This document shows, one piece after another, positions 1,970 through 56,149 of a stretch of 64,000 nt of DNA. The number at the start of each line of letters is the position of its first letter. Position 1 is the first letter of the stretch. Source of the stretch: Acutalibacteraceae bacterium (lineage in GTDB: Bacteria; Bacillota; Clostridia; Oscillospirales; Acutalibacteraceae); contig JAZRNB010000040.1 in assembly GCA_045647985.1 (NCBI GenBank), positions 3,293 to 67,292 on the forward strand. Direction: 5' to 3'. Below the pieces are notes generated by a model that ran no database searches, was not told the DNA's origin, and saw only the letters and a list, made by a program, of their open reading frames with translations. A program made the translations under genes and the position numbers.

Positions 1970-2010
1970 TAAAACAGCTTGCTGCCCGATAATGCTTAAG
2001 AGGTGAGCAG

Positions 2011-3039: not shown

Positions 3040-3048
3040 TATGAAAAA

Positions 3049-3088
3049 CGGCAGCAAGAATCCGATGTTTCTTTGCTGTCGCTTTTTT
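3049..3088 (+). terminator. Rho-independent terminator after the macro-domain gene
   Basis: Imperfect stem cggcagcaagaa / ttctttgctgtcg followed by a T6 run. Confidence 0.6.
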
Positions 3089-3410
3089 ATTATATAGGAA
3101 ATTGCTCGCGTAGTGAGCAGTTTAGCTTATAACAAGAAACACCTACAGCCCTCAAGAATGGGGGTAGGGGGTTGATAAATTGTATGATTTTTTCTTGCTT
3201 TATAGAAAAATCCTTTCTGTAAGGTAAAAAAATTATATGTCCCTGAGAACACAAAGTAAGCCTACCTCGGAGACGGACTATTCAAAAACGGTCACCATAT
3301 GTGTTCAGCGAAGCCGTTTTTTTGAGCTATAGTTCTTTTTCGGAAAAACTGTTATAATATTAGTGTTAAAATACAGTGTATGAATAAATATTCACAGAAA
3401 GGTGATAAAT

Positions 3411-4802
3411 ATGAAAAAACCATTACCTAAAAGCAAAATGTACCGTTATTGTCTTGCTGATATAGCAAAGGGTTTGTTCAACGGTATGATAGGTAACTAT
3501 CTGCTTTATTTCTTTCAGCCTACTGTAAAAAGCGGGCTTCCGTTGCTGCTTCCTGAGAATAAGCTTCTCGGATTTATCACAATAATGGCACTCATTACTG
3601 CCATAGGAAAAATTGTCGATGCAGTAACTGATCCTATTGTTGCATCCTTATCCGATAAATGTAAGCACAAGGCAGGCAGAAGAATGCCGTTTTTGCGTTA
3701 TGCAGCAATTCCATATGCGCTGTCAGTGCTTCTTATTTTCTTTGCACCGTTCAAGGAAGGCTCTGTGCTTAATGCCGTATGGGTAGGCTTCTTCCTGGTT
3801 ACATACTACACATCATACACATTCTACTTTATTCCGAAGAATGCACTTGTCCCCGAGATTATTCCCGATGCAAAGGTAAGAGTCGGATATTACGGGGTAA
3901 GTACCGTATTTTTTATGGGATCAAGCTCATTTATGTACGCTGCCACCCTGTTTGTTGATATGCTTAAAAATGCAGGCTTTTCTCCTCTTTGGGCATGGAG
4001 AACAGTATTTACCGTGTTTGCTGCAATCGGACTTATCTGTGTACTTTTAAGTGCCTATGCTTTTAATGAAAAGGATTATGTTACGGAAAACACAAAACCT
4101 AAGGAATCAATGCTTAAGTCCTTTGTACTTGTTTTCAGAAATAAGAATTTTGTTATTTTCAGCCTGGGTGATTTGTTCAGCGGTGTATCAATGGCATTTT
4201 TCCAGACTGCAATGCTTTACTACATAACAATGCTTCTGAATGTACCCGAATCCCAGTCGTTTCTTGTTATGCTGTCAGCCATTGCAGTTGCAATATGCTT
4301 ATTCCCGGTAATTATAAAAATGAGCAGAAAATACAATAAAAAGCTTCCTCTTATAATTGCCAGTGTTATTTTTACCGTGGTTTTCGGACTTATATACTTC
4401 GGTGACAAAATTGCTGCACTTGCTCCCGGAAATGAGCTTTTCATAGGTCTTGCTATGGGGGTTATAGTGTCATTCCCCTTTGCTGCCATAAATATCCTGC
4501 CTCAGTCTGTTGTTTCGGATATAATTCAGTGTGACTCTCTTGTCAGCGGTGTAAACCGTGAAGGAATATTCTCTGCCGTTAAGACATTTATTGAAAAAAT
4601 CTGTTCCGCAATTGCTATGATGGGTGTTTCAAGTATTCTTGCTGTCGGTGCACTTGAAGGTGAATCTGTAGGACTTCAGGGAGTAAAGCTTACCGGTGTT
4701 TTTGCAGGAATATTCAGCCTTCTTTCTCTTGTTATATTTATTTTCTATAATGATAAAAAGGTTACCTCAACAATTGAAAAATACAGAGGTGAAAATAAGT
4801 GA
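3411..4802 (+). CDS. GPH-family (glycoside-pentoside-hexuronide) cation symporter, MFS superfamily
   Basis: About 12 predicted TM segments. The N-terminal region (DPIVASLSDK...GRRMPF) is typical of MelB/GPH. ATG 3411 follows a GAAAGGTG RBS; an upstream extended -10 (TGtTATAAT) lies at 3350-3358. Confidence 0.75.
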   Translation: MKKPLPKSKMYRYCLADIAKGLFNGMIGNYLLYFFQPTVKSGLPLLLPENKLLGFITIMALITAIGKIVDAVTDPIVASLSDKCKHKAGRRMPFLRYAAIPYALSVLLIFFAPFKEGSVLNAVWVGFFLVTYYTSYTFYFIPKNALVPEIIPDAKVRVGYYGVSTVFFMGSSSFMYAATLFVDMLKNAGFSPLWAWRTVFTVFAAIGLICVLLSAYAFNEKDYVTENTKPKESMLKSFVLVFRNKNFVIFSLGDLFSGVSMAFFQTAMLYYITMLLNVPESQSFLVMLSAIAVAICLFPVIIKMSRKYNKKLPLIIASVIFTVVFGLIYFGDKIAALAPGNELFIGLAMGVIVSFPFAAINILPQSVVSDIIQCDSLVSGVNREGIFSAVKTFIEKICSAIAMMGVSSILAVGALEGESVGLQGVKLTGVFAGIFSLLSLVIFIFYNDKKVTSTIEKYRGENK

Positions 4803-6178
4803 TAAAAAAAAGAATTTTATCTGGCGAAGAAAAACGTAAAAATGTAACGCCTGAAAAAAACAATGAGTATGCACAAAAGCTCAAGCAAATGATTGATTGT
4901 AAAACTGTATTTACAAGAGACGGTGAGAATAAGGCAGAGTATGAAAGGTTCAATTCTGTTATAGAGAAAAATTTTCCGAATCTGATAAATAAAGCCCAAA
5001 AGCTTGTTTTCGGAAGCGGCTGCTTCGTTTATGTGATAAAAGGCAGAAATGCAGATAAGAACATAATGCTTATGTCCCATCACGATGTGGTTGAAGGGGA
5101 TGATACATGGAAAACCGATCCCTTCAATGCAGTTATAAAGGATGGTGCTATGTGGGGCAGAGGTACTATTGACACCAAAACTCCGCTTTTTGCACAGCTT
5201 CAGGCTTGTGAAGAATTGATTTCCGAGGGATTCTCTTTTGACGGAATTAATCTGTATATCGGCTCCTCTGACAATGAAGAGGTATGCGGTGACGGAATGG
5301 TGCTTGCAACCGGATATTTCAAGGAAAACGGTATACACTTTGATGTTGTTCTTGATGAAGGCGGTGCAATTACTGAGGGCATGATTCCCGGTGTAAAGAA
5401 TAAGAGTGCGATGGTGGCCGTTCACGAAAAAAGCCGTCATTTGTACAGAGTGAAAACAAAAGGAATCACAAAAGGTCACGGCGGACTGAATCCTTCAGAT
5501 GACAGTGCAATTTTAAGACTTAACGGTTTTATAAATGAAGTAAGTAAGAAAAAAATATATAAGGGTGCTTTTCATCCCGAGGTTAAAGCAACCTTTGAAA
5601 CACATGCACCTTATATGCCCTTGCCCTTAAGTCTGCTATTCGGAAATCTTACGTTTTTTTCTCCTTTGGTTAAGAAAATTATGTCATTCATTCCGCAGAC
5701 AAAGGCAATGCTCTCGACAAGCATTACTTTTACAAACTTCTTTGCAGGTACAAAGGAGGATCCTCAGATTAAGGCAAAAGAGGCTGAGGCAACAATGTTT
5801 CTTCGATGTATCCGTGAGGATGATTTGCTTAAAGGTCTTGAAAAAATCAAGAGAATTGCAAAGAAATACAGCGTCGAAATAGAGGAAATTGAAAGGGACT
5901 ACTGTCAGCCATCAACCTTTGACAGTAAGCCTTATAAGCTGTTAGAGCAGATAATGAATGAAAATTTTCCTGATGTTATTGTTTCGCCGTTCCTTCTTAC
6001 TGCCGGTACTGATGCAAGAAGATTTACAGATGTTGCTGACAGTATTCTTCGTTTCGCTCCTATCGATCTTGACAAAAAGCAGTTTGCTTCAATTCACAGC
6101 GGTAATGAGCATATAAAGATAAAAAATATCGGTGAATGTGTCTGTTTCTATAAGGATTTTGTGAAAAAGTATAATTGA
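4799..6178 (+). CDS. M20-family metallopeptidase (ArgE/DapE/carboxypeptidase-like)
   Basis: M20 motifs MSHHDVVEGDDTWKTDPF, GRGTIDTK and DEGG. The GTG start overlaps the transporter stop by 4 nt. Confidence 0.75.
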   Translation: MIKKRILSGEEKRKNVTPEKNNEYAQKLKQMIDCKTVFTRDGENKAEYERFNSVIEKNFPNLINKAQKLVFGSGCFVYVIKGRNADKNIMLMSHHDVVEGDDTWKTDPFNAVIKDGAMWGRGTIDTKTPLFAQLQACEELISEGFSFDGINLYIGSSDNEEVCGDGMVLATGYFKENGIHFDVVLDEGGAITEGMIPGVKNKSAMVAVHEKSRHLYRVKTKGITKGHGGLNPSDDSAILRLNGFINEVSKKKIYKGAFHPEVKATFETHAPYMPLPLSLLFGNLTFFSPLVKKIMSFIPQTKAMLSTSITFTNFFAGTKEDPQIKAKEAEATMFLRCIREDDLLKGLEKIKRIAKKYSVEIEEIERDYCQPSTFDSKPYKLLEQIMNENFPDVIVSPFLLTAGTDARRFTDVADSILRFAPIDLDKKQFASIHSGNEHIKIKNIGECVCFYKDFVKKYN

Positions 6179-6224
6179 AAAAAGTCTCCCGGCAAGCGAC
6201 CATTCTGATTCCGGAAAAATGTAT

Positions 6225-6269
6225 AATGTGATTGTAAGGTAAGAAAACCTGCAATCACATTATTTTTTT
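6225..6269 (+). terminator. Rho-independent terminator after the M20 peptidase gene
   Basis: Stem aatgtgattg / caatcacatt followed by a T7 run. Confidence 0.6.
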
Positions 6270-6284
6270 CAGGAGGAAAACAAA

Positions 6285-6944
6285 ATGGAAAAAAAGAGAA
6301 ATAATATTACAGAGCTTGTATTTATTCTTGACAGAAGCGGTTCTATGGCAGGACTTGAGAAGGATACAATAGGAGGCTTCAATGCAATGATAGAAAAGCA
6401 GAAAAAGGAAGAGGGGATATGCTATATTTCAACTGTCCTTTTTGACGGTGAGTCAGAAGTTCTTCATGACAGAGTAAATCTTTCCGATATAAAGCCTATG
6501 ACAGATAATGACTATACCGTAAGAGGCTGCACCGCATTGCTGGATGCAATAGGGGGTGCTGTTCATCATATCGGAAATGTGCATAAATATGCCCGCCGTG
6601 AGGATGTCCCCGACAGCACAATGTTTGTAATAACCACGGACGGAATGGAAAATGCAAGTCATTATTATTCAGCAGACAAGATTAAAATGATGATTGAAAG
6701 ACAGAAGGAAAAATACGGTTGGGAATTCCTTTTCATTGGTGCAAATATTGATGCTGTAGAGACAGCGTCACGTTACGGTATATCAAAAGATCGTGCCGTT
6801 AATTATATGGCAGACAGGGAAGGAACGGAAATTCTTTATGATACAGTTTCTTCTGCAGTGGTTGATGTACGGGCAAAAAGAAAGCTTGACAAAAACTGGA
6901 GCAGCCGTATTGATGAGAATTACAGAAGAAGAAGAGAAAAATAA
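6285..6944 (+). CDS. von Willebrand factor A (vWA) domain protein
   Basis: MIDAS-type start LVFILDRSGSMAG, followed by TTDGMEN. Length is 219 aa. An AGGAGG RBS is present. Confidence 0.7.
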   Translation: MEKKRNNITELVFILDRSGSMAGLEKDTIGGFNAMIEKQKKEEGICYISTVLFDGESEVLHDRVNLSDIKPMTDNDYTVRGCTALLDAIGGAVHHIGNVHKYARREDVPDSTMFVITTDGMENASHYYSADKIKMMIERQKEKYGWEFLFIGANIDAVETASRYGISKDRAVNYMADREGTEILYDTVSSAVVDVRAKRKLDKNWSSRIDENYRRRREK

Positions 6945-44448: not shown

Positions 44449-44904
44449 ATGAAAAAAGCTTTGCCGGATAAAGAATACTCTGAAAGAGTAAAAAAACTTA
44501 CTCCCTCGTCTCCATTGTTAAAGGACTGCTTGTTTGCTTTCTTGTTTGGTGGGATAATGTGTGTTTTGGGAGAAACTCTTTTTAATTTGTATTATGGTGT
44601 ATTTGCAGATGAAAAGGTTTCAAGAACCGTGGTTTCAATTTCGGTTATTGTGCTTACTGCAATTCTTACGGGTATAGGAGTCTATGATAAAATTGCAAAA
44701 ATCGGCGGAGCAGGGCTTGCTGTTCCCATCAGCGGTTTTGCAAATTCTGTATGTTCACCTGCTATTGAGTACTCAACTGAGGGGCATATTCTCGGTACCT
44801 CTGAAAAAATGTTTTCTCTTGCAGGTGCAGTTATAGTATACGGATGCTCTCTTGCCTCGCTTTACGGAATGATATATTACTTTTTCCTCGGAGGTAATGT
44901 ATGA
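44449..44904 (+). CDS. spoVAC: Stage V sporulation protein AC
   Basis: LKDCLFAFLFGGIMCVLGE...GAGLAVPISGFANS...EYSTEG is collinear with B. subtilis SpoVAC as recalled. ATG 44449 was chosen because the longer ORF overlaps rpsR. Confidence 0.85.
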   Translation: MKKALPDKEYSERVKKLTPSSPLLKDCLFAFLFGGIMCVLGETLFNLYYGVFADEKVSRTVVSISVIVLTAILTGIGVYDKIAKIGGAGLAVPISGFANSVCSPAIEYSTEGHILGTSEKMFSLAGAVIVYGCSLASLYGMIYYFFLGGNV

Positions 44905-45542
44905 AAAGACGCAGAGTATTTGAACTGAAAAACAAGCCTTGTATCATTACTTCGGCTGCCGCTGTAGGTAAGGTAGAGGGTGAAGGCCCCTTAAAGGATG
45001 AATTTGATGTAGTTTTTCCGGATGATGGTATTATGCAGAACTCCTGGGAAAATGCAGAAAGTGAGCTGATGTTTACTGCCGTAAGCAAGAGTCTTGAAAA
45101 ATCAGGGCTCGGGGAAAGTGACATCGGTGTGATTTTTGCAGGCGATCTTATAAATCAGTGTACCTCAAGCACATATGCAATAAGAGGCTTTGATTTTCCC
45201 TTCTGCGGATTGTTCGGTGCCTGTTCGACAATGGCATATTCTCTTGCTTTGGCATCAATTGTAGTTGACGGCGGTTATTCGGATTTGGCGCTTGCTGCAA
45301 CATCTTCGCATTTCTGTTCTGCAGAAAAACAGTTCAGATATCCGCTTGAATACGGAAGCCAGCGTGCTCCTGCATCTCAGCGTACGGTTACGGGTTCAGG
45401 TGCATTTATTGTGGGGAGAAACAGACATTCTGAAATTGTTATACCCCGTGTGATGTTCGGGAAAATCACAGATGCGGGAATCAGTGATACTTCCAATATG
45501 GGAGCCGCAATGGCACCTGTAGATGTTAAAATAGAACCATAA
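44901..45542 (+). pseudogene. spoVAD: spoVAD, 3'-truncated (about 206 conserved codons of an expected ~335-340)
   Basis: Collinear with SpoVAD (thiolase-like) through FAGDLINQ, CGLFGACSTM, LAATSSHFCSAEKQFRYPLEYG and TSNMGAAMAP. Seven unrelated codons and a TAA follow. The C-terminal third and spoVAE are absent from the window. Confidence 0.8.
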
Positions 45543-46304: not shown

Positions 46305-46333
46305 TTGATTAATTCGTCAGATAAGAGTATAAT
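46305..46333 (+). promoter_or_regulatory. Sigma-A-type promoter upstream of the PHP-ATPase operon
   Basis: TTGATT (46305-46310), a 17-nt spacer, then TATAAT (46328-46333). Confidence 0.5.
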
Positions 46334-46385
46334 ACGACACAACGCTGTCAAAGCGATGTTGATTTTGGCAGGTAATATGAATTTT

Positions 46386-46431
46386 AACCTCCCTGCTTAT
46401 TTTGTCAGGGAGGTTTTGTGTTTGAATTGTT
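46386..46431 (+). promoter_or_regulatory. Terminator-like stem-loop in the 5' leader of the PHP-ATPase gene
   Basis: Perfect 10-bp stem aacctccctg / cagggaggtt with a 10-nt loop, followed by the T-rich ttgtgtttgaattgtttttt. It lies between the predicted promoter and the GGAGGG RBS. Confidence 0.45.
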
Positions 46432-46448
46432 TTTTGGAGGGATAGTTA

Positions 46449-48818
46449 TTGAACAGAATTGTAAATAATGGTGTAAAAATAGACTTGCATATACATTCCT
46501 GTGCATCGTCAAAAAAAGACGGTAAAAAAGTAAAAAATAACACGTTAGAAAGAATACCGCTTTTGATTGAAAAGCTGAATGAAAACAGCGTGAATGTTTG
46601 TGCTATAACAGATCACGATACTTTTTCTTATGAAATGTACTCAACATTGAAAAAAGCAGAGAAAGATGATTCTTCAATTCAAAAGGTGCTTCCCGGTGTC
46701 GAGTTTACAGTTAGTTTTTTAGATGATAATCAACAAAACAAGTCCGTCCATGTTGTATCAATTTTTTCTGATAAAGATGAATCTAAAATTAAAAATATTG
46801 AAAAAATTTTAGTAGATAATCCTCCTTCAACAGGTGGGTTCTATATGGAAGAAAATTTTCTAAAGATTTTACGTTTAATTGATATTGACACTATTTTAAT
46901 TGCACATCAAAAAAATACATTATCCACAAAAAAAGTGCGTGACAATGATGTAAATGCATTGGGTGAAAACAAATTTTTAGAACTTGTTGAATCTGATTTT
47001 TTTGAGTCATACGAATTTAAAAACAAACGCAATGAAATATTGAACAAGAATCATTTAGCAATTAACAATATGCAGGACAAAGTAAGATTTGTAACCGGTA
47101 CAGATTGTCATGATTGGTCTGTTTACCCAAGAGAAGATTCTTCAGAAAAAATGGAAAGTTTCCCTTATACATATGCTAAATGTTTACCAACTTTTAAAGG
47201 ATTAGTAATGGCAGTAACAAATAATAGACGCCTAAAAAGAGTCGATAGCTTTTTCAATGTAGATAAATTCACACTGAATGCTATTAATATTGAAAAAAAC
47301 GGTAAAAAATTGCAAATACCGCTTTCAAAAGGTATTAATGTGATAATCGGAGATAACTCCATAGGAAAATCAATGTTATTACATTCTCTTGCAGGTTTTG
47401 AAAAGGACGGAGAAAAATTAGATTCTAAAATTAAAAGTGGGTATCAGAAATATGCAAAAGATAATGGTTTAAAAATAAAGAAGCTTTTATCTAAAGATAA
47501 CATTTTTCATTTTGATATGCAGGGAGAAGTTAGGAAAAAATTCGAATTGAATCAGCTTGTTGCTACAGAATTTTCTAAATATTTTCCTAAAAATATAGAT
47601 CCTAAACCATATCGTTCAATAATTGAAAATGAAATAAATAATTTGATTTGTTTTTTAGATAAAAAATTTTCAATTGAAAAAGAACTGTTGCATCTTACAA
47701 AATTTGATATACATGAATCAAAAGAATTTGCTGAAAGTCTTTCTTTTGTAGGAGACGTTCGTTCTATAAAAAAAGATTGTGATATATTCAAAAATATTCA
47801 ATCTAAAATTAAGCAAATCGATATTGATATTGATGAGGTGCTTAAATTAAAATTAGACGAACTGGATGCTGATGAATTTAGGAAAATTAAAGCACAAATT
47901 AATGGGATTAAGACAAAGTATATCGAAAAAGAAGAAGCTGCAAAAAAGGAAAATACAAAAATTGAATCTGTTGCAAAAAATATTGATAAAGCAAAAAAAC
48001 GTCATGATGAGATTATTACTGATGAACAAAAATTAGATACAACTTTCATAGAAAAAACAAATAATTTAAAAGAAGCAATTATTAAGATAATTAAACAAAG
48101 TCAAAGTCTTTCTGAATATAAAATATCCATCGAGCGTACAGAGGTTAAACCGGCCACAAATCCCATACAGGAATATAATTTCATTTCTAAAATTAATGTT
48201 GATGTTATTGATTCTGATTATTTTTTGAAACATGTATACAATGTGTTTAAAGCAAATAAAAAAATTGATTTTAATAATATAAGTGAAAAACAATTGCGGG
48301 ATTCATTATTACGCTATGACAATTCTATTCCAGTGTTGCAATTTTTGAAAGATGCTTTACTGCAGGAATTTGAGAAGGATTTTGAACCAAAAAACACAAT
48401 AACGCTTAACGATATGGATGAAACACGAGAACTTTCAGCAGGATTAAATGCTAAAATATACTTTGATTTATTGTCTTATGAAAGCAGTATGGAAGGTATT
48501 TATATTATTGACCAACCGGAAGATAATGTTTCTCAACCTTCTATCAAAGAATATCTGTTGGATTGTTTTTCAGCTATGAGCGACAATAGGCAAATCATAA
48601 TGGTTTCCCATAATCCACAATTTATTGTTAACTTAGATATAGATAATTTAATATATCTATCAAAAACTGAAACTGGAGAATTAACAGTAAAGTATGGCGC
48701 TTTAGAATACGAAAATGATGATTATAGTATTCTTGATATTGTTGCAAATAACATAGATGGTGGTTTAGATACCATTCAGAAAAGGTGGAAAAGATATGAA
48801 AAGATTAATAAGATTTAA
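46449..48818 (+). CDS. PHP phosphoesterase domain fused to an SMC/Rad50-like ABC ATPase with a coiled-coil insert
   Basis: TTG start, 7 nt after GGAGGG. PHP ligand set: H14-x-H16, D55-H56, E85, H101, H153, D219-x-H221. Walker A GDNSIGKS (301-308). Lys/Glu-rich predicted coiled coil at about 450-560. Signature-like LSAGL (662-666). Walker B IYIIDQPE (684-691). H-loop SHN (720-722). Confidence 0.75.
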   Translation: MNRIVNNGVKIDLHIHSCASSKKDGKKVKNNTLERIPLLIEKLNENSVNVCAITDHDTFSYEMYSTLKKAEKDDSSIQKVLPGVEFTVSFLDDNQQNKSVHVVSIFSDKDESKIKNIEKILVDNPPSTGGFYMEENFLKILRLIDIDTILIAHQKNTLSTKKVRDNDVNALGENKFLELVESDFFESYEFKNKRNEILNKNHLAINNMQDKVRFVTGTDCHDWSVYPREDSSEKMESFPYTYAKCLPTFKGLVMAVTNNRRLKRVDSFFNVDKFTLNAINIEKNGKKLQIPLSKGINVIIGDNSIGKSMLLHSLAGFEKDGEKLDSKIKSGYQKYAKDNGLKIKKLLSKDNIFHFDMQGEVRKKFELNQLVATEFSKYFPKNIDPKPYRSIIENEINNLICFLDKKFSIEKELLHLTKFDIHESKEFAESLSFVGDVRSIKKDCDIFKNIQSKIKQIDIDIDEVLKLKLDELDADEFRKIKAQINGIKTKYIEKEEAAKKENTKIESVAKNIDKAKKRHDEIITDEQKLDTTFIEKTNNLKEAIIKIIKQSQSLSEYKISIERTEVKPATNPIQEYNFISKINVDVIDSDYFLKHVYNVFKANKKIDFNNISEKQLRDSLLRYDNSIPVLQFLKDALLQEFEKDFEPKNTITLNDMDETRELSAGLNAKIYFDLLSYESSMEGIYIIDQPEDNVSQPSIKEYLLDCFSAMSDNRQIIMVSHNPQFIVNLDIDNLIYLSKTETGELTVKYGALEYENDDYSILDIVANNIDGGLDTIQKRWKRYEKINKI

Positions 48819-49458
48819 ATTAGTTGATAATAATTATGTTTTAGAAGAAAACAGTGAAATAATATTCACAATAAATTCTATGGACTTAAAATTTATTTCA
48901 ATTGACTTTTATAATGGCTTATATGAAAACAAGTATCCTATAGTTTCTTTAGAATATGATATTGAAGACGATATACATAAAAAAGGCAAATATATATTTA
49001 ATTGGTTGACCGGTATTATCGATTCAATAAACAAGGAGTTTCCTAATGAATTAGATAAATGTAACTCTGATGAGGATGAGATTCATACTGAAAACAAAAC
49101 TGTCAAACTATTTGATTATGCTGCTTGTGCAGGAGATGGGTTTTATTTAGATGAAAACTCTTCTTATACACAAATAGAAACTACTATACTTGACGCTGAG
49201 TATGCAGTCAAGATATCTGGGCAAAGTATGGAGCCAACTATCAAGGATGGTACCGTGATTTTTGTTAAACCTACCGAAGAACTTGAAGCTAAGAGCATAG
49301 GATTATTTATTGTTGACGGTAACGTTATGTGCAAAAGATTAATTAAAAGAGGAAAAGGTACATTTTTAGTTCCTGACAACACTTCGGGTGAATATGAAGA
49401 AATTAACCTTAAAAAGGTTGATTCATATAAATTGTTAGGTAAAGTACTTGTTTATTGA
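48796..49458 (+). CDS. S24 (LexA/UmuD-type) peptidase-domain protein with an unknown N-terminal domain and no HTH
   Basis: The C-terminal half reads AACAGDG...KISGQSMEPTIKDGTVIFV...FIVDGNVMCKRL. Ser144 and Lys180 are spaced 36 residues apart (37 in LexA, as recalled). ATG follows a GGTGG RBS and overlaps the upstream gene by 23 nt. Confidence 0.7.
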   Translation: MKRLIRFKLVDNNYVLEENSEIIFTINSMDLKFISIDFYNGLYENKYPIVSLEYDIEDDIHKKGKYIFNWLTGIIDSINKEFPNELDKCNSDEDEIHTENKTVKLFDYAACAGDGFYLDENSSYTQIETTILDAEYAVKISGQSMEPTIKDGTVIFVKPTEELEAKSIGLFIVDGNVMCKRLIKRGKGTFLVPDNTSGEYEEINLKKVDSYKLLGKVLVY

Positions 49459-49537
49459 AAATATTAGTATATACACTTTTGGTTAGAAATATTGAGGTGT
49501 ATATTTAATGTAAATAATAAATGAAAGGAATGATATT

Positions 49538-51169
49538 ATGCCACGTCCAAATATGACAGGCTATAGTTTGCTTTTATCCTGTCCGGGAGATGTGTTAGAT
49601 TTAAAAGACACCGTTGAATCATGTGTTAAGAGTTTTAATGCTTCAATTGGAGAAATAAATAACATTTTTATTACTGTTAAGCATTGGTCTACTGATAGCT
49701 TTTCGCAATCAGGTGACAAGCCGCAAAACATCCTCAACAGTCAATTTGTCGACGATTGTGATTTATGCATAGCTCTTTTGGGTGGTCGTTTTGGAACACC
49801 AACTGATAATTATGATTCAGGAACAGAAGAAGAAATAGAGAGAATGATTGCCCAAAACAAACAAGTATTCTTATACTTTGTTGAACGAGATATAAACTTA
49901 GGTAGCATTGATATTGCTCAATACCAAAAAGTACAAAACTTTAAGAAAAAATATGCTGATAAGGGTGTTTACAGAGTTGTGAAAAGTGCAGAAGAATTAA
50001 GATCTTCTTTCCAAAACGCACTTTCTTTATATTTTATTAAATTAGCTGCGCCGCTCACTACCAATTTACAACCTGCACTCACTCCAGAATTGCTTATATC
50101 AACTGATGATGATATTTCTGAAAATATTGAGCCATTTTATAATGACTATATAGATTCTAAGTTTGTGCATGACAAAGAATCTGAAATTGCTTCCTTAATT
50201 GACGAAATATCAGCTTTTTCAATAGAAGTTTCTCCGGATACGACACAGAATAATGAAAATTCAGAGTATACCGATGAAGAAGTAAGCAATATGACTTTTG
50301 GAGAATTATCAAAAGCGGCTGAGAAAAACAAAGTATCTACAGCTCAAGTTAATAGATTTTTAGGAATCAAATCTCCAAGTTATGAACCTGCAGAAATTAT
50401 ACCGCAAGAAAAGGATATGATTATATCCTACTGTAAAGATAAGGGTATAGATTTAGATGATTCTTTTTGGTTTTTAGGTAATTTAAAAAAGAAAACTGCT
50501 TATCCAATGATAACTGTATGGGGAAATACAGACATTTCTTTCTCAGGCAGTAAATCTGAAGAGGAAAAATATGCATCTATACAGAAGCTGATTAGAAAAT
50601 TACGTGAGTATAATCATATAAGTGAATACTTTAAACAAATAGATGCTTATGCAACGCTTTCTCTTATCGTTAGTAATATTGGTAACACTTACGATGAAGA
50701 TATAGATGTTAAGTTGTATATACCCAAAGGATGTTTACTTTTCAGTGACGAAATCCCAAAGCCAGGTCTATTCTTTCTGGATAAAGCGGTAGATATTAAA
50801 CTGCCTAACATTATATTTAGAGGAAGTAATCATCCTGAAATTGACGATTACTCTCAATATCCAATTGAACATTATGTTACACCTATGTTGGCAAACCTAT
50901 TCAAGAGCAGAGACGATGAAATAGAAGCGCAAAGACAAGAATATGATAATTATGTTGAACGCATTTTTTGTTATGAAATAAAAGAAACGAATGAGCTTGA
51001 TGTACTTTGTTTTAACATCCCATATTTAAAACAGCACACAAAAATGTTTTTTCCTTCATATCTGCTTTTTAACGATATTCCTGATGAAATCCGATATGAC
51101 ATTCGAGCCAAGCGGTCACCGGATGTGTATAGAGGTATACTTACCATAAAAAAAGATATTGTTGACTAA
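49538..51169 (+). CDS. DUF4062-like (TIR/flavodoxin-like) N-terminal domain protein with an unknown ~400-aa C-terminal region
   Basis: Residues about 10-120 (LLLSCPGDVLDLKD...CDLCIALLGGRFGTP...SGTEEEIERMIAQNKQVFLYFVE) follow the DUF4062 pattern as recalled (fISs..D...cD.fv.ilg.rYG...S.TE.E...A....k.vl.F). The remainder is unrecognised. Confidence 0.5.
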   Translation: MPRPNMTGYSLLLSCPGDVLDLKDTVESCVKSFNASIGEINNIFITVKHWSTDSFSQSGDKPQNILNSQFVDDCDLCIALLGGRFGTPTDNYDSGTEEEIERMIAQNKQVFLYFVERDINLGSIDIAQYQKVQNFKKKYADKGVYRVVKSAEELRSSFQNALSLYFIKLAAPLTTNLQPALTPELLISTDDDISENIEPFYNDYIDSKFVHDKESEIASLIDEISAFSIEVSPDTTQNNENSEYTDEEVSNMTFGELSKAAEKNKVSTAQVNRFLGIKSPSYEPAEIIPQEKDMIISYCKDKGIDLDDSFWFLGNLKKKTAYPMITVWGNTDISFSGSKSEEEKYASIQKLIRKLREYNHISEYFKQIDAYATLSLIVSNIGNTYDEDIDVKLYIPKGCLLFSDEIPKPGLFFLDKAVDIKLPNIIFRGSNHPEIDDYSQYPIEHYVTPMLANLFKSRDDEIEAQRQEYDNYVERIFCYEIKETNELDVLCFNIPYLKQHTKMFFPSYLLFNDIPDEIRYDIRAKRSPDVYRGILTIKKDIVD

Positions 51170-51314
51170 CATATGAAAAAAACTTTTATGGTACATAAAA
51201 AAAGCGATTCTTTGCAGAAACATTATTTTTTTTAAGTATTCCCAACGACAGAAGTTAATCAAATGAGGAACTGTTTCAGCAGAACCGTCAACATCTCAAC
51301 CAAAAACATTCAAA

Positions 51315-51360
51315 TCCCCGTTGTCACAGTAACCTGCACCAACGGGGATTTTCCTTTTTT
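51315..51360 (+). terminator. Rho-independent terminator of the three-gene operon
   Basis: Stem tccccgtt / aacgggga followed by ttttcctttttt, 146 nt after the stop of the third gene. Confidence 0.65.
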
Positions 51361-51768
51361 ATGCATCCTTAAAACACACTGTGTCCTTCAAACACTCACG
51401 CCTTTTTACATAGGTTTGGTTAACAGCTGGATATTCGGTGTTAGGTAGAGTAGTTTTCGCAAGGTAGTGATAAATCTTAAACGCTACAATAATATAGTTT
51501 TTTAGTGATGTATGAAAGCATATCTTTTTTGCTCATTTTTCCAAAGATGCTATCATTAAAGATTTTTAGTGTACTTTCATCCGGTAATGATTTGATAAAT
51601 GTTTCTAACTGTTCCGTTATAAAACTACAGTCTTTAACCGCACTCAGAGTTATCTTGATTTCTGATGCTTCGTTCATCTGTAATATTATTAATAGTACCT
51701 GTACACGTAATACTGAAAAATACAAAGTATCTGCTTTGTGTAGCAGAGGACAGTTTAGGTGAAATATA

Positions 51769-51807
51769 CGGTGTAGTCAGTTGCGGCTACACCGTGTTTT
51801 CATTTTT
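51769..51807 (+). terminator. Stem-loop plus T-tract abutting the 3' end of the recombinase gene
   Basis: Stem cggtgtag / ctacaccg followed by tgttttcattttt. It would block plus-strand read-through into the antisense strand of the recombinase gene. Confidence 0.45.
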
Positions 51808-53518
51808 ACGAAGCTTTTTTAGCGTAAGCTTTCATTTCTTCTTTTGTCTTTTCTAACATTTCAGCATCAGGAAACTGCATAACACCTACTCCCACAAAGT
51901 GTATTTTTATGGTGACATGTTTCTTTCCGTCTTCACCTCTTACTCGGTCAAAGACTTCAATTTTGTCAATGAGCTTATTAACAATAGAAGGTGTCAGTTC
52001 CTTCAAGTCAGTACACTGACGAATGTTAGAAAGAAAGTTTCTGGCATCAACATTTTCTTGCTGTGCGGTATTGATAAGTTTCTCAGCATCCTCAACCTTT
52101 TGCATTAAATCCATCTGCTCATTTTCATAGTTGGTTAACATTCGGTTGTAACGGTAATCAGGCAGTTTGCCAAGAACATTTTGTTCAAATACCGCCTCAA
52201 TGAGTTTATCCAACTCCTGTATGCGTTTCTTGTTTTTCTCAAGCTCATACTTTGCTTCTTTAAGGTTGTTCGCGATACTAAGTCTGTGTTGCTTTGCGAA
52301 GAGATACAGAAACAGTCGTTCATATTCAGTAATATATTCTGCCGCTTCTCGTATAGTTTTGAGCACCATTTTCTCTAACACTACATTTCTGATATAGTGA
52401 ATAGAACAACTGCCTCTGTTTTCCTTATAAGCGGAGCAACGGAAGAACTCCTGATGTTCTTTAACACTTTTTGCGGCACAGAAATATAGTTTTGAACCAC
52501 AATCTCCACAGTAAACCAATCCCGAAAATATACTTTGCCTGCCCGTCGCTGTATTTCTGCGGCGGTGTTTGTTTATTTCCTGAACTCGTTCCCAAGTATC
52601 CATATCAATAATAGGTTCCTGTGTGTTCGGTATGATAACCCAATCTTCAGCATCGTTATATACCGTTTTATGAACCTTGAAGCTGACAGTTGTTGACTTG
52701 AAATTTACAGTGCAACCTGTGTATTGCATATTCTCAAGGATATGCTTTACACTTGTTTCTTGCCATTCATATGAAGTGGTGAGAGCATTTCTTGTTTTTC
52801 GTCCTATAGAATAGAAATATGCAGTAGGTGTCAGTATTTCCTCGCTTTCAAGTCTTCGGGCAATCTTTCTGATACCTAACCCCTCAATCGCTAACTGATA
52901 AATATATCTGACTACCTTTGCAGCAGGCTCATCAATTACCCATTGTTTAGGGTTCTCTTTATCCTTTTTGTAACCGTAAGGCACCATAGCGGAAACTCTT
53001 TCTCCGTTATCGGATTTTGATTGCCACACCTGACGAATTTTCTTGCTTGTCTGTGAAGCATACCACTCATTAAACAGATTGTGAAATGGCATCATTTCCG
53101 TTCCCTTGCCGCTTATGGTTTCAACGTTCTCCTGAATAGATATAAAGTTCACACCTAAAGACGGATAAAGCACCTGAGTATAGTGGTCAAACAATATATG
53201 CTCACGTCCAAAACGGGATAAATCCTTTACAATAACAGTACCGATTTCACCTGTTTCTATCATACGCTCCATACGCTGAAAGTCAGGTCTGTCAAAAGTT
53301 GTACCTGATATACCGTCATCAACAAAGAACATTGTATTCTTGTAGCCGTGCTTTTTGGCATAGTCTGCAAGAATACGTTTTTGATTAGTAATGCTGTTGG
53401 ATTCTGAATCCTTGTTGTTATCCTTATCCTTATCTTTATCCTTTATATCGTCAACAGATAAACGGCAGTATAATGCGGTTATTTTTTCATTAATATTTTT
53501 CTCGGCTTTCTTTGCCAT
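51806..53518 (-). CDS. Large serine recombinase (TnpX/TndX-like)
   Basis: The N-terminal resolvase domain has the catalytic Ser in ALYCRLSVDD, plus VIVKDLSRFGR. A recombinase domain and a Cys-rich zinc-ribbon region (CGDCGSKLY...FRCSAY) follow, then a C-terminal coiled coil. ATG 53518 follows a GGAG RBS. Confidence 0.85.
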   Translation of the reverse strand: MAKKAEKNINEKITALYCRLSVDDIKDKDKDKDNNKDSESNSITNQKRILADYAKKHGYKNTMFFVDDGISGTTFDRPDFQRMERMIETGEIGTVIVKDLSRFGREHILFDHYTQVLYPSLGVNFISIQENVETISGKGTEMMPFHNLFNEWYASQTSKKIRQVWQSKSDNGERVSAMVPYGYKKDKENPKQWVIDEPAAKVVRYIYQLAIEGLGIRKIARRLESEEILTPTAYFYSIGRKTRNALTTSYEWQETSVKHILENMQYTGCTVNFKSTTVSFKVHKTVYNDAEDWVIIPNTQEPIIDMDTWERVQEINKHRRRNTATGRQSIFSGLVYCGDCGSKLYFCAAKSVKEHQEFFRCSAYKENRGSCSIHYIRNVVLEKMVLKTIREAAEYITEYERLFLYLFAKQHRLSIANNLKEAKYELEKNKKRIQELDKLIEAVFEQNVLGKLPDYRYNRMLTNYENEQMDLMQKVEDAEKLINTAQQENVDARNFLSNIRQCTDLKELTPSIVNKLIDKIEVFDRVRGEDGKKHVTIKIHFVGVGVMQFPDAEMLEKTKEEMKAYAKKAS

Positions 53519-53604
53519 AATTAAAACTCCTTTCCGGAAGCCGAGCATTGCATTAGGTGTTTCCATTTTACAATGCCCGACTGCCGTTTTTCAAATGTGT
53601 GATT

Positions 53605-53886
53605 TTATGACAGCTGTTCTGACAGTATAATTTCTTTAAACTGCTGTAACAACGATTTATTTAACTTACCGTCAAAGACACCTGTTACATCATAAACAAT
53701 ACCGTGTATCTGTTCTGAAACTTTGATTTCATCGGGAACAGTCTGCATTTCTTCCGTTCTCTTTATTTCGTCAGGCTTTGGAATTGCATACTCCATTAAA
53801 TCAACCGGGATATCAGCATTTATTCTGCCTGAACCTTTTCTTGAAACAAGCTTAGGAGCTATTGAAAGTTTCTTCATCCGCATCAC
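53605..53886 (-). CDS. Small hypothetical protein in the mob-parB-recombinase operon
   Basis: 93-aa ORF whose ATG overlaps the ParB-like stop by 4 nt (translational coupling). No motif was recognised. Confidence 0.4.
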   Translation of the reverse strand: MMRMKKLSIAPKLVSRKGSGRINADIPVDLMEYAIPKPDEIKRTEEMQTVPDEIKVSEQIHGIVYDVTGVFDGKLNKSLLQQFKEIILSEQLS

Positions 53887-54818
53887 CTCGCATCCCTGTT
53901 TCTCTGTCGCTGAAGATATTTGTGGTAATATTCCAGAGCTTTTAAGATATGCTCCTCTTTCTGCTGTTTGCTATAGTTTTTACCGAAGAATTTGTTAATA
54001 CGTTCTTCAGGGATTTTAATAGCTTCTGCCTGATTAGGCTTTGGTGCAGTCAGAATTGCTAACACTGTATCTGCACTAAGCTGATTCTGTTCAGAGAGTT
54101 TACGCATTTTCTGTGCCTGTGCAAGTGAGGGAGTGACCTCATCACTCTCATAGGTTTCAAAAATCATCATCTGCTCTTCGGGAGTAAGATATGAGATTTC
54201 AACCGCAGGTCGCATTGCAATTCTGCCTTCATCAACAAGGTTAAGAAGCGACATTTCAAGGTTAGTCAGACGGATATACCTCTTGATTTGAGTTGCACTG
54301 TCTTCGCTATCCTTGGAAATTTTTTCTGCAGAGCTCAACTTTGGACCCACCGGGTCCGAAGTTAAATCCGTGCGTTTACCTTGCTTTTTAATAGCATCCA
54401 TTTTCATCTTATAGGCAAAGGCTTTTTCCGAGGGCAGAATATGCTCACGGTGCAGATTACTGTCAACGAGAATAATATCTGCTTCCTCTTTGCTTATGTC
54501 CAATACAACAACGGGAACCTCTGCTATTTTCAGCCTTGTTGCCGCAAGGTATCTTCTGTGACCTGATATGATTTCATATATATCAGCCTTATCATCCTTA
54601 CGCACCATAAGGGGTTGGATAATACCATTATCACGGATACTATCTTCCAACGGCTTCATATCTTCCTCACGGCACTTATACGGATTCTTAAAATTAGGAA
54701 CAATACTGCTCATAGGCATCTTTATGATTTCTGTTGTCTGAGGCTTTACCGCCTCTGTTTCTTTGGATTCTTCTGTTTTCTCAAACAGGGTGTTAATAAA
54801 ATTATCTTCTTTATTCAT
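53883..54818 (-). CDS. ParB/Spo0J-like N-terminal domain protein
   Basis: IIQPLMVRKDD...YEIISGHRRYLAATRL is a ParB-box (GxRR). 311 aa. It starts 4 nt after the relaxase stop. Confidence 0.75.
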   Translation of the reverse strand: MNKEDNFINTLFEKTEESKETEAVKPQTTEIIKMPMSSIVPNFKNPYKCREEDMKPLEDSIRDNGIIQPLMVRKDDKADIYEIISGHRRYLAATRLKIAEVPVVVLDISKEEADIILVDSNLHREHILPSEKAFAYKMKMDAIKKQGKRTDLTSDPVGPKLSSAEKISKDSEDSATQIKRYIRLTNLEMSLLNLVDEGRIAMRPAVEISYLTPEEQMMIFETYESDEVTPSLAQAQKMRKLSEQNQLSADTVLAILTAPKPNQAEAIKIPEERINKFFGKNYSKQQKEEHILKALEYYHKYLQRQRNRDAR

Positions 54819-54822
54819 TTAA

Positions 54823-56022
54823 TTACCTCTCTTTTCTGATATCAATTTTTTTATTGGTTTTCTCTTTTCGGACAGTTTTTAGCACATCCGAGATAAATGC
54901 TTTAACTTTTTCAGGCATTGCTTTTAGTGCTTCAAGGTACGGTGCACAGATCTGTTCAAGCTCACTAAGCCTTTTACTCAGTCTGTTTATATGGCTCTGC
55001 AATTCCCAATTCCTTTTTCGAAGTCTTTCATTTTCTCCCTCAAGGTCAAAAATCTTACTCCTTGCCGCAACGGACTGCTTTGCCATATTGCTCAGATCAT
55101 TGAAATCTTCACTTGAAATTGTCACTTTACCCGTTAGGGTTTTCTTACCCATACCGTCAATCTCGTTGAATGTCTTATGCACGGTCTTAATTTCATCGTA
55201 TCTGACTTTTTCCGTCTGCAATCGTTCCTTGATTTCTTCAAGCCTCTTTTTATCCTGCTGAATCTCATATTGCAGACAAGACAGATGCTCAGCCGTACTG
55301 CCTTTCTCACCACGAATGAAATCATTAAAACCGGCTTTTTGCATGTGATTGAAGAAATCATCCTGCAAAATACTGTAGGACGGAATCAGCACAGGTTTAC
55401 CTTTTTCATTGAATATGACATTACCGTTTTCATCCACAGCCTGAGGTGACTTCCATTTCTTTGAATGGCTTATCTGATTGACAGTTTCTTTTACAGTACC
55501 TACAAGTGATTTATCTTTGCATCGCTTTGTCCACAGAATTTGCTTTTCCACAACAGGCAGAGCTACAAGGTGCATATGATAGTGATATACCGGTTTCCCG
55601 TACTGTTCTGTGAGCGCCACATTCAGTTCATCAGCGTGCATAACGGCAGATAAAATATTCTGTTCACCGTAGAGATTAACTGCGAAACGATAGGCTTCTG
55701 CATAAAACTCTTTTGCATATTCATAACCGCCGTGAGTTTCAAAGTAGTCTGTGTTTACATCGAATATGACTTCATCAAAGACCTTCGCATCAGCTTTAAG
55801 ACCACGCATACAGACTCTCTTTTCGGCTATTAGTTTGTTCAGTTGTTCGTTGTAGGTCAGTTCTTCGCAACTCTTGAAATGCACATTCATATCAGAGTGA
55901 GCCATATCAACATTCATGTTTGCGTAAGACTCATTCTTTCTCTCATTGTGCCTTTCACACTTACCGATTGTGCTTTGTGTATGAGTGACAACTCTTGCTA
56001 CACTGTAGTTTTTCTTAGACAT
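54823..56022 (-). CDS. MobV-family (Mob/Pre) relaxase
   Basis: MSKKNYSVARV...GKCERHNERKN (the HxxR motif) and VMHADE...YHYHMHLVALP (the HxDE...HxH motif), with a coiled-coil C-terminus. ATG 56022 follows GGAAGGAG. The longer ORF starting at 56148 is probably not used. Confidence 0.8.
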   Translation of the reverse strand: MSKKNYSVARVVTHTQSTIGKCERHNERKNESYANMNVDMAHSDMNVHFKSCEELTYNEQLNKLIAEKRVCMRGLKADAKVFDEVIFDVNTDYFETHGGYEYAKEFYAEAYRFAVNLYGEQNILSAVMHADELNVALTEQYGKPVYHYHMHLVALPVVEKQILWTKRCKDKSLVGTVKETVNQISHSKKWKSPQAVDENGNVIFNEKGKPVLIPSYSILQDDFFNHMQKAGFNDFIRGEKGSTAEHLSCLQYEIQQDKKRLEEIKERLQTEKVRYDEIKTVHKTFNEIDGMGKKTLTGKVTISSEDFNDLSNMAKQSVAARSKIFDLEGENERLRKRNWELQSHINRLSKRLSELEQICAPYLEALKAMPEKVKAFISDVLKTVRKEKTNKKIDIRKER

Positions 56023-56149
56023 AGGTTTATCTCCTTCCTGCATTACTGCTTTATTTGTTCCGCTGACTTTCTTCGAAAGTGCGTAACCCACTATGACACT
56101 TTCACGGATTTCCCGTGCAAAGATGTCAGTGGGCTCTGCGAGGCTCATA

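Follow-up and report, generated by a model that had tools for sequence, protein, structure and literature searches.

The AT-rich block at 46.3-51.4 kb of the 64,000-nucleotide (nt) stretch of contig JAZRNB010000040.1 from an Acutalibacteraceae bacterium (hereafter the window) carries three plus-strand open reading frames (ORFs) of 789, 220 and 543 amino acids (aa). On balance, the block is best interpreted as two independent, neighbouring conflict modules, candidates for anti-phage function, in a variable, element-derived hot-spot. Module A consists of genes 1 and 2, a conserved, self-contained two-gene unit with obligate pairing. Gene 1 is predicted to encode an SMC/Rad50-like ABC ATPase that has a short coiled coil and is preceded, in the same polypeptide, by a PHP phosphoesterase, presumably a nuclease, and gene 2 encodes a small partner with a predicted S24 autoprotease domain. 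Gene 3, designated as module B, is predicted to encode a TIR-like NADase with a DUF4062/NIR domain, akin to Swarozyc and Evangelion but differing from them in its presumed sensor region. The three genes are located as follows.

46449-48818, plus strand: gene 1, 789 aa, with a TTG start codon and the ribosome-binding site GGAGGG
48796-49458, plus strand: gene 2, 220 aa
49538-51169, plus strand: gene 3, 543 aa

The layout reported in the initial annotation was reproduced upon re-measurement: the three ORFs are co-oriented, genes 1 and 2 overlap by 23 nt, and genes 2 and 3 are separated by a 79-nt gap. The G+C content is 0.27-0.33 over 46-51 kb, compared with ~0.40 in the left flank and 0.38-0.40 at 52-56 kb, in agreement with the AT-richness described there. 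The characterization of the block as foreign-looking DNA, with all three proteins of conflict-system character, also stands.

One genome per species was scanned from ~185,000 species genomes, and with the patterns used, 36 loci with a gene 1 relative were found. Their hosts belong to Clostridia, Negativicutes, Erysipelotrichaceae and Bacilli, and include one metagenome-assembled genome labelled Mycoplasma. The profile of the gene 2 N-terminal domain matches directly 3' of gene 1 in 34 of these 36 loci. Gene 1 is truncated in the remaining two, so that every full-length gene 1 (34/34) is paired, and the tight linkage of genes 1 and 2 suggested earlier is confirmed. In nearly all loci, gene 2 begins ~23-32 nt before gene 1 ends, or up to ~59 nt before that point when the start of the longest ORF is used, suggesting translational coupling. 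The partner has two forms. The long form of 212-230 aa, composed of the domain, an acidic linker and S24, is seen at gene 1 identities of at least 48%, and the short form of 89-115 aa, composed of the domain and an acidic tail without S24, at gene 1 identities of 37-46%. Half of the loci have a partner without S24. All-against-all clustering of the neighbours in the 36 loci revealed no third conserved gene beside the pair. Among 1.8 billion representative proteins, the gene 2 N-terminal domain occurs in 61 clusters of two size classes, ~90-125 aa (alone) and ~215-245 aa (with S24), and in no other fusion. In viral collections, the pair was found in four IMG/VR loci and in none of the INPHARED genomes.

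Gene 3 behaves differently. In the initial annotation, the three genes were combined into a single integrated system, with the DUF4062 protein, the PHP-ATPase and the S24 protein acting as sensor, switch and effector, and a lack of co-occurrence in other genomes was named as grounds for abandoning it. The arrangement in the window is compatible with such a system: all three genes point the same way, genes 2 and 3 are only 79 nt apart, no terminator lies between these two, and a single one follows gene 3. The trio is also retained in eight closely related contigs with 91-95% nucleotide identity; these are near-identical strains and do not represent independent evidence. Against the three-gene system, the gene 3 profile gave 0 matches over the 36 genome loci carrying gene 1, its homologs elsewhere stand alone without genes 1 and 2, and published tests found DUF4062 proteins to be protective as single genes. 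A single three-gene system is therefore highly improbable.

Two further contigs show how the third gene can change. In L001 (= L061) and L060, tnpV is present and genes 1 and 2 are intact, and the place of gene 3 is taken by an unannotated gene of ~290-330 aa and a sigma-70-like gene of ~546 aa. At ~8170-8210 of L001, and at the same locus in L060, the ribosome-binding site of gene 3 and its first ~10 codons (ATGCCACGTCCAAAAATGACAAGCTATA) remain, in L001 together with the intergenic region, and therefore gene 3 was replaced while the pair was kept. Homology to the window restarts at the terminator (51314). The swap looks like a cassette-style replacement between fixed flanks. Gene 3 may be co-transcribed with module A in the window, but it is no part of this module. 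DNA of foreign appearance can hold two systems in one hot-spot even where it looks like one tidy operon.

The domains of gene 1 were assigned as follows.

46476-47228, plus strand: PHP domain, ~aa 10-260, matched by Pfam PHP and an NCBIfam PHP-type phosphatase model
47274-47588, plus strand: N-terminal half of the ATPase head, with Walker A G301-S308 (K307) and Q-loop Q358
47604-48107, plus strand: coiled-coil insertion, with helices at aa 386-416, 445-465, 471-522 and 530-553 in the AlphaFold2 model
48153-48806, plus strand: C-terminal half of the ATPase head, with signature S663-G665, Walker B/DQPED D688-D692 (E691) and H-loop H721

The domain call made in the initial annotation is recovered by Pfam, with PHP (a weak match) at aa 12-108, AAA_21 at aa 663-725 and P-loop matches around the Walker A motif at ~aa 296-314. 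The putative PHP metal ligands H14, H16, D24, H56, E85, H101, H153, D219 and H221 are invariant in 21 homologs with 53-64% identity, as are the ABC motifs G301-S308, Q358, S663/G665, D688-Q-P-E691-D692 and H721. Most of these PHP and ABC catalytic residues are invariant across 32 sequences down to 37% identity, and among the metal ligands E85, H101, H153, D219 and H221 are still invariant in this set. In the AlphaFold2 model, long paired helices separate the two ATPase lobes. Foldseek matched the model to the heads of SMC, cohesin, Rad50 and RecN, to JetC, PtuA, AriA and GajA, and to the PHP domain of Pol III alpha. The C-terminal head is matched by AAA_21, GajA and the C-terminal part of Ppl, and PADLOC gave weak, partial matches to the ATPase models of GajA, LmuB, Ppl, PtuA and AriA. 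More than 1,400 homologs of gene 1 were recognized, with full-length ones at 50-64% identity. The sequence search of solved structures gave no match, and no protein match was found among phage genomes. On plasmids, gene 1 has only partial C-terminal matches at the level of TrlF, covering 12-18% of the query, and no DNA near-identical to the block was found on plasmids.

The regions of gene 2 were assigned as follows.

48796-49035, plus strand: N-terminal domain, aa 1-80, with a beta-beta-beta-alpha-beta-alpha fold at a predicted local distance difference test (pLDDT) score of ~95 in AlphaFold2
49036-49125, plus strand: variable acidic linker, with a net charge of -3 to -7 in 16 of 17 long forms
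49126-49134, plus strand: predicted LexA-type cleavage site C111-A112 / G113, invariant in 34 homologs
49132-49455, plus strand: S24 autoprotease core (PF00717), with predicted catalytic residues S144 and K180

Gene 2 was described earlier as an autoproteolytic module of the LexA/UmuD type, and its sequence has the expected features: the S24 domain, the Ala-Gly site and the Ser-Lys dyad. The Peptidase_S24 match (PF00717) covers aa 111-217 with 72.7 bits against a cut-off of 23.3 (E = 2.6e-20). Besides the cleavage site C111-A112-G113, both S144 and K180 are invariant in the 34 homologs. The site is located in the flexible cleavage-site loop of the AlphaFold2 model, and the top Foldseek matches are the C-terminal domains of LexA, lambda CI and UmuD, with the cleavage-site region included. 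LexA, CI and UmuD cleave themselves at an Ala/Cys-Gly bond via a Ser-Lys dyad when bound by RecA on single-stranded DNA (RecA-ssDNA). The LexA model TIGR00498 matches only aa 124-218 of gene 2, with 29.8 bits against a cut-off of 110.95.

The N-terminal domain has no match in Pfam, PADLOC, NCBIfam or PHROGs. The earlier description of gene 2 as lacking a helix-turn-helix (HTH) also proved correct: no HTH family was found with Pfam and PHROGs, and the N-terminal fold is beta-rich. The isoelectric point of this domain is 4.3-6.6 in all homologs but one (8.0), its net charge is -10 to +1, and the net charge of the linker or tail is as low as -9. The gene 2 partner is unlikely to bind DNA, because its N-terminal domain is acidic to neutral and its linker or tail is acidic.

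These properties bear on the possibility that gene 2 is a LexA-like, SOS-inducible repressor with a novel DNA-binding domain, which controls only the expression of gene 1. Repressors such as LexA and CI account for most S24 proteins that have an N-terminal extension. The PHROG and NCBI annotations name the relatives of gene 2 as repressors, and there are inverted repeats both in the leader and between genes 2 and 3. However, neither an HTH nor any other DNA-binding family was matched, the beta-rich fold has no winged helix, and in half of the loci the supposed repressor would consist of the domain and an acidic tail alone. Gene 2 lies downstream of its supposed target and is apparently translationally coupled to it in every locus, and its N-terminal domain was never found away from gene 1. 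A purely transcriptional role is unlikely because of the acidic, HTH-less domain, the downstream position, the S24-less forms and the exclusivity to gene 1, and the repressor model is accordingly given little credence. The relatives of gene 2 that are labelled as LexA family transcriptional regulators are probably not repressors.

No PADLOC (v2.0.0, 2023), NCBIfam (20.0), Pfam or PHROG model names the pair, and only sub-threshold or partial matches to its ATPase and PHP parts were obtained. This agrees with the placement of genes 1 and 2 outside named systems in the initial annotation, as no PADLOC or NCBIfam model assigns them. Literature on TrlF, on PHP with S24 and on PHP with ABC ATPases yielded no description of the pair, and it is not mentioned in the DefensePredictor and modularity-network papers. 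The pair is thus unnamed in the libraries and literature searched, and its components are of known kinds. Its nearest relatives are Ppl, which is characterized, and TrlF, which is named but unstudied.

Ppl was reportedly described by Gao et al. in 2020 as a single-gene anti-phage protein of Escherichia coli, with a PHP exonuclease and an NTPase. It is the only PHP-NTPase defence protein characterized so far, and according to a review, it is a 3'-5' PHP exonuclease on single-stranded DNA, held off by bound nucleoside triphosphates and activated by 3'-OH ends (PMC12904381). Gene 1 resembles Ppl in having an N-terminal PHP domain and a C-terminal ABC-type NTPase in one polypeptide, and both are found in a defence context. 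The Ppl profile matches the C-terminal ATPase lobe of gene 1 (PADLOC E = 4.9e-6 over ~120 aa; NCBIfam E = 2e-8). However, the Ppl model NF042955 gives gene 1 only 32.7 bits against a cut-off of 1000, with aa 674-782 aligned, and gene 1 is ~100 aa shorter. Ppl works alone, whereas gene 1 is always accompanied by a partner gene, which overlaps its stop codon in all 34 loci with full-length gene 1. Membership of gene 1 in Ppl was therefore rejected on the score, the partial alignment and the presence of the partner gene.

TrlF (NF045780) is the best library match of gene 1, with E = 3.3e-40 over aa 10-530, and hhalign gave 99.2% probability between the C-terminal lobe of gene 1 and the TrlF of an E. 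coli plasmid. TrlF genes also occur in conflict contexts, beside an S-4TM effector gene or methyltransferase and helicase genes. Gene 1 scores 138.6 bits against the TrlF equivalog cut-off of 350, and is thus no equivalog; against the Spaf_1101 model (NF045781), it scores 46.8 bits with a cut-off of 475. TrlF proteins are ~890-945 aa long, compared with 789 aa for gene 1, and the annotation shows no gene resembling gene 2 downstream of either of the two inspected TrlF genes. The literature searched contained no functional study of TrlF. Gene 1 represents a separate family within the PHP and ABC-ATPase architecture, because it falls far below the cut-offs of TrlF, Spaf_1101 and Ppl and its PADLOC matches are partial. 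Should the pair function as a system, the PHP-ATPase nucleases, a poorly understood superfamily that includes Ppl, TrlF and Spaf_1101, would gain a branch with a dedicated partner.

A TrlF gene with neighbours of its own was seen on the E. coli IncI plasmid NZ_AP028312.1. At 1498-6396 of this locus (L054), a TrlF ATPase of 893 aa lies directly 3' of a hypothetical protein gene and a gene for an S-4TM putative pore-forming effector. The plasmid is conjugative and carries resistance, and the three genes have the appearance of a conflict cassette.

Other known systems share single components with the pair. The C-terminal half of gene 2 has the S24 fold, the Ala-Gly site and the Ser/Lys dyad of LexA, lambda CI and UmuD. 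Unlike LexA and CI, gene 2 has no recognizable DNA-binding domain, and its N-terminal domain is family-specific and mostly acidic; its partner would be the PHP-ATPase and not operator DNA, as for LexA, or UmuC, as for UmuD. PARIS (AriAB), Septu and retron PtuAB, Gabija (GajAB) and Lamassu (LmuABC) contain an ATPase head with a coiled coil of the same class as gene 1. In these systems, the ATPase scaffold silences an effector until a trigger arrives, and this is the logic proposed for the pair. In gene 1, however, the predicted nuclease is fused to the ATPase, and the separate protein is small, acidic and predicted to be self-cleaving, and is not the effector. No homologs of AriB, PtuB, GajB, LmuA or LmuC were found, and genes 2 and 3 do not match the PADLOC models of these partners. 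What distinguishes the pair is the predicted LexA-type autoprotease attached to the dedicated partner of a putative defence-type nuclease.

The genomic context of the relatives was examined in two ways. In annotated loci of genes 1 and 2, the neighbours include type I/IIG restriction-modification genes, a Lamassu-like set (CTD7, MC3 and LmuB_C) and ATPase_2/DUF234, as well as ResIII helicases, large serine recombinases, MobC/NikA, RadC and YqaJ. Family scans of the 124 nearest neighbours in the 36 loci matched BrxL of BREX, a type III restriction endonuclease, SspH, AbiL, AriA, FtsK and KilA-N. The same scans matched large serine recombinases and the PADLOC candidates PDC-S41, PDC-S22, PDC-S02 and mad2. 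The relatives of genes 1 and 2 are thus found in defence and mobile-element contexts.

The same contexts have to be considered for functions other than immunity. The pair might serve SOS-linked DNA repair, as an analogue of SbcCD/Mre11-Rad50 with a UmuD-like subunit, or it might be an addiction module of the toxin-antitoxin style which stabilizes mobile elements. A PHP domain with a Rad50/SMC-like ATPase resembles end-processing nucleases, and UmuD is a precedent for an S24 protein which has no HTH and which, once cleaved under RecA stimulation, regulates a DNA enzyme. Addiction would be consistent with the frequent presence of the pair in integrative or mobilizable elements beside recombinases and MobC. 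Both functions are, however, at odds with the patchy and rare distribution (36 loci in ~185,000 species genomes with the patterns used) and with the low G+C content of the block. The neighbours are repeatedly restriction-modification, BREX, Lamassu-like, Ssp and Abi genes and not repair genes, and Ppl, the closest characterized architecture, is an anti-phage nuclease. A function outside immunity is unlikely, and a role in addiction may coexist with one in abortive infection.

For module A as a candidate defence system, the following mechanism is proposed. The acidic gene 2 partner would bind gene 1 and hold the nuclease-ATPase quiescent, and its acidic linker or tail may occupy the DNA-binding surface of gene 1. 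An infection or DNA-damage signal, most plausibly a RecA-ssDNA filament, would stimulate self-cleavage of gene 2 at A112/G113. The cleavage would part the N-terminal domain from the dimerizing S24 core and may destabilize the domain; the predicted fragment ends with A-C-A, which presumably resembles the C-terminal degron exposed on cleaved LexA. Gene 1, once released, would bind DNA ends or structures and degrade DNA. Clades with an S24-less partner would use the same inhibitor minus the cleavage input. It is tentatively suggested, as a conceivable rather than a favoured reading, that the S24 domain is an immune trigger at the protein level, which reads RecA filaments, or a phage mimic of such filaments, on invading or replicating phage DNA, and that the loss of the inhibitor licenses a Ppl-like nuclease.

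To our knowledge, the known damage-linked controls of defence systems act by transcription (e.g., CapH/CapP and WYL-type regulators). If the proposal is true, the pair would represent a two-gene defence family not described before, with SOS sensing that reaches the effector post-translationally and not via transcription, and would provide a clean case of LexA-style self-cleavage directly controlling an immune effector. Because the partner exists naturally in a short and a long form, the contribution of S24 could be judged by comparing the two.

Several points weigh against this interpretation of the pair. The Pfam PHP score of gene 1 is 19.8, under the gathering threshold of 26.4, and the AlphaFold2 model of gene 1 is moderate, with a mean pLDDT of 70. 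The fold search with full-length gene 2 gave S24 matches alone and none for the N-terminal domain. The association with defence islands was judged by lists of neighbours, with no statistical enrichment test. The pair may already be included among the models of later DefenseFinder or PADLOC releases. The interaction between genes 1 and 2, the direction of control, the RecA dependence and the nuclease substrate are all inferred, and the control might have the opposite sign, with gene 2 as an activator or adaptor of gene 1. A 1005-aa fusion of gene 1 and gene 2 (P0064; 1388-4405 of L045) is present on one 6-kb metagenome contig, and it may be real or may be a frameshift artefact from a one-base assembly error. 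As a Rosetta-stone link between the two proteins it was given little weight, since it occurs on a single contig, the overlap of the two genes is out of frame, and one indel would fuse them.

The regions of gene 3 were assigned as follows.

49562-50062, plus strand: DUF4062/NIR core, ~aa 9-175, with predicted catalytic E97 in the motif S94-G95-T96-E97
50063-51166, plus strand: auxiliary region, ~aa 176-543, with no family match and presumed to be the sensor

The DUF4062 match (PF13271) scores 28.5 bits, above the Pfam gathering cut-off of 24.7, so that the domain call of the initial annotation is upheld. DUF4062, renamed NIR, is a TIR-like NADase domain according to three 2026 preprints, in which Swarozyc, Evangelion and Vulcan protected as single proteins (10.64898/2026.05.01.722283; 10.64898/2026.06.25.731849; 10.64898/2026.09.04.749371). 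Swarozyc is a single-protein system that hydrolyses NAD+ in a portal-activated abortive defence dependent on E97 (10.64898/2026.05.01.722283). Evangelion is a single gene with a DUF4062 core and an auxiliary region, and carries an acidic-S-Y-T motif with the catalytic Glu (10.64898/2026.06.25.731849). The DUF4062 domain is also present in Avs, Vulcan and Vesta (10.64898/2026.09.04.749371).

Gene 3 shares with Swarozyc, Evangelion, Vulcan, Vesta and PDC-S60 an N-terminal DUF4062 core, an S-x-T-E motif and a C-terminal auxiliary region. Like Swarozyc and Evangelion, it is a stand-alone gene on mobile or defence DNA. The motif S94-G95-T96-E97 is unchanged in 29 homologs. In an alignment with the KpSwz chain of PDB entry 10wc, the counterpart of E97 is residue 82, which is taken to be the catalytic E97 of KpSwz if the chain begins at residue 16 (16-C construct). 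The sequence similarity between gene 3 and KpSwz is marginal (E = 0.017 over ~90 residues), and the gene 3 family profile had no match in PDB. The PADLOC model PDC-S60 matches with E = 8e-27 at profile positions 5-251 of 906 alone, and the auxiliary region of gene 3 is unlike that of PDC-S60; membership in PDC-S60 was rejected on this partial alignment. The auxiliary region (~370 aa) has no match in Pfam, PADLOC, NCBIfam or PHROGs. The homologs of gene 3 are full-length at ~540 aa and are conserved throughout, including this region. One of those without genes 1 and 2 lies beside SMEK_N and caspase-like genes, and the Clostridium botulinum homolog is ~8 kb from a DNA methylase gene. Gene 3 would be expected to deplete NAD+ upon phage detection and lead to abortive infection, an outcome demonstrated for Swarozyc and supported for Evangelion. 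Those of its relatives that are labelled as hypothetical belong to the recently defined DUF4062/NIR family of defence NADases.

In the window, the block is flanked by tnpV upstream and by genes for a large serine recombinase, a ParB_N protein and a Mob_Pre relaxase downstream. The downstream features are as follows.

51477-51732, minus strand: 3' remnant of a 373-aa gene, its last ~96 codons (tblastn reaches 51767)
51733 to at least 56190: inserted recombinase/ParB/relaxase element
51806-53566, minus strand: TnpX-like (DUF4368) serine recombinase
53883-54818, minus strand: ParB_N protein
54823-56148, minus strand: Mob_Pre relaxase

From the position of the block between tnpV and the recombinase/relaxase genes, the initial annotation had taken it to be cargo of a mobilizable element. 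The position is true in the window, but the arrangement is not conserved: the recombinase/ParB_N/Mob_Pre module is present in 0 of ten related contigs, eight with the trio and two with genes 1 and 2 alone, and the argument from a cargo slot is lost with it. All ten carry tnpV with genes 1 and 2, and cargo of a Tn4451-type mobilizable transposon, with TnpX, TnpV and Mob as a unit, was rejected on this basis. Homology to all relatives stops at 51732, within the 373-aa gene. The recombinase/relaxase module is a separate, later insertion that truncates this gene, because the ten relatives are without it and the 373-aa gene is intact there and cut at ~51732 here. It is no cargo frame for genes 1-3. 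The window does not include the right end of the inserted element, nor the remainder and the neighbours of the 373-aa gene.

Three minus-strand genes of 373, 110 and 353 aa adjoin the block in the relatives (11936-14493 of L037, with equivalents in L038-L044, L060 and L061). None of the three has a Pfam family, and each is intact in all relatives; the 373-aa gene is the one that is cut in the window. On the left side, spoVAD (44901-45542, plus strand) is cut after ~213 of 329 profile positions, and the junction at ~45520 is followed by foreign sequence and then tnpV. This junction of truncated spoVAD and tnpV is common to the close relatives L037-L040, L060 and L061. No 3' part of spoVAD was found within 10 kb in the relatives; the rest of the window was not searched for it. 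A low-G+C stretch at 57-63 kb with NUDIX, cupin and GNAT genes may belong to the inserted element.

The transcription signals of the block are as follows.

46305-46333, plus strand: promoter-like site TTGATT-17-TATAAT, 10/12 matches, candidate
46386-46423, plus strand: terminator-like leader hairpin, stem AACCTCCCTG / CAGGGAGGTT with T-run TTTTGTGTTT, z = -3.4
51312-51360, plus strand: intrinsic terminator ending the block, a 12-bp hairpin (stem 51312-51351) with a T-run

The terminator after gene 3 was predicted earlier, and folding supports it as a strong hairpin with a T-run: its energy is -20.5 kcal/mol, compared with -8.75 +/- 2.6 in shuffled sequences (z = -4.5), and 0 of 200 shuffles are equal to it. 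The automatic terminator scan passed over this hairpin because of its long loop. The claim of a single operon promoter fared less well. The TTGATT-17-TATAAT site is present and is the only good promoter-like site above the leader hairpin, but such sites occur in the AT-rich stretch at the rate of shuffled sequence (35 observed, against 33.3 +/- 6.5). The claim is left unverified because the terminator-like hairpin, which ends 25 nt before the start codon of gene 1, separates the promoter-like site from that start.

The leader hairpin has no match in Rfam. Its stem is retained in L001 and is missing upstream of gene 1 in 31 of 34 other loci. A family-wide attenuator was rejected, since the hairpin occurs in this lineage only and matches no Rfam family. 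Possible roles are as a terminator of the tnpV unit that allows read-through, as an attenuator, or as the end of a small RNA. An 8-bp inverted repeat, ATATACAC-N20-GTGTATAT, is located at 49469-49504 on the plus strand, within the 79 nt that separate genes 2 and 3. It is possibly an operator, and possibly a chance occurrence in AT-rich DNA.

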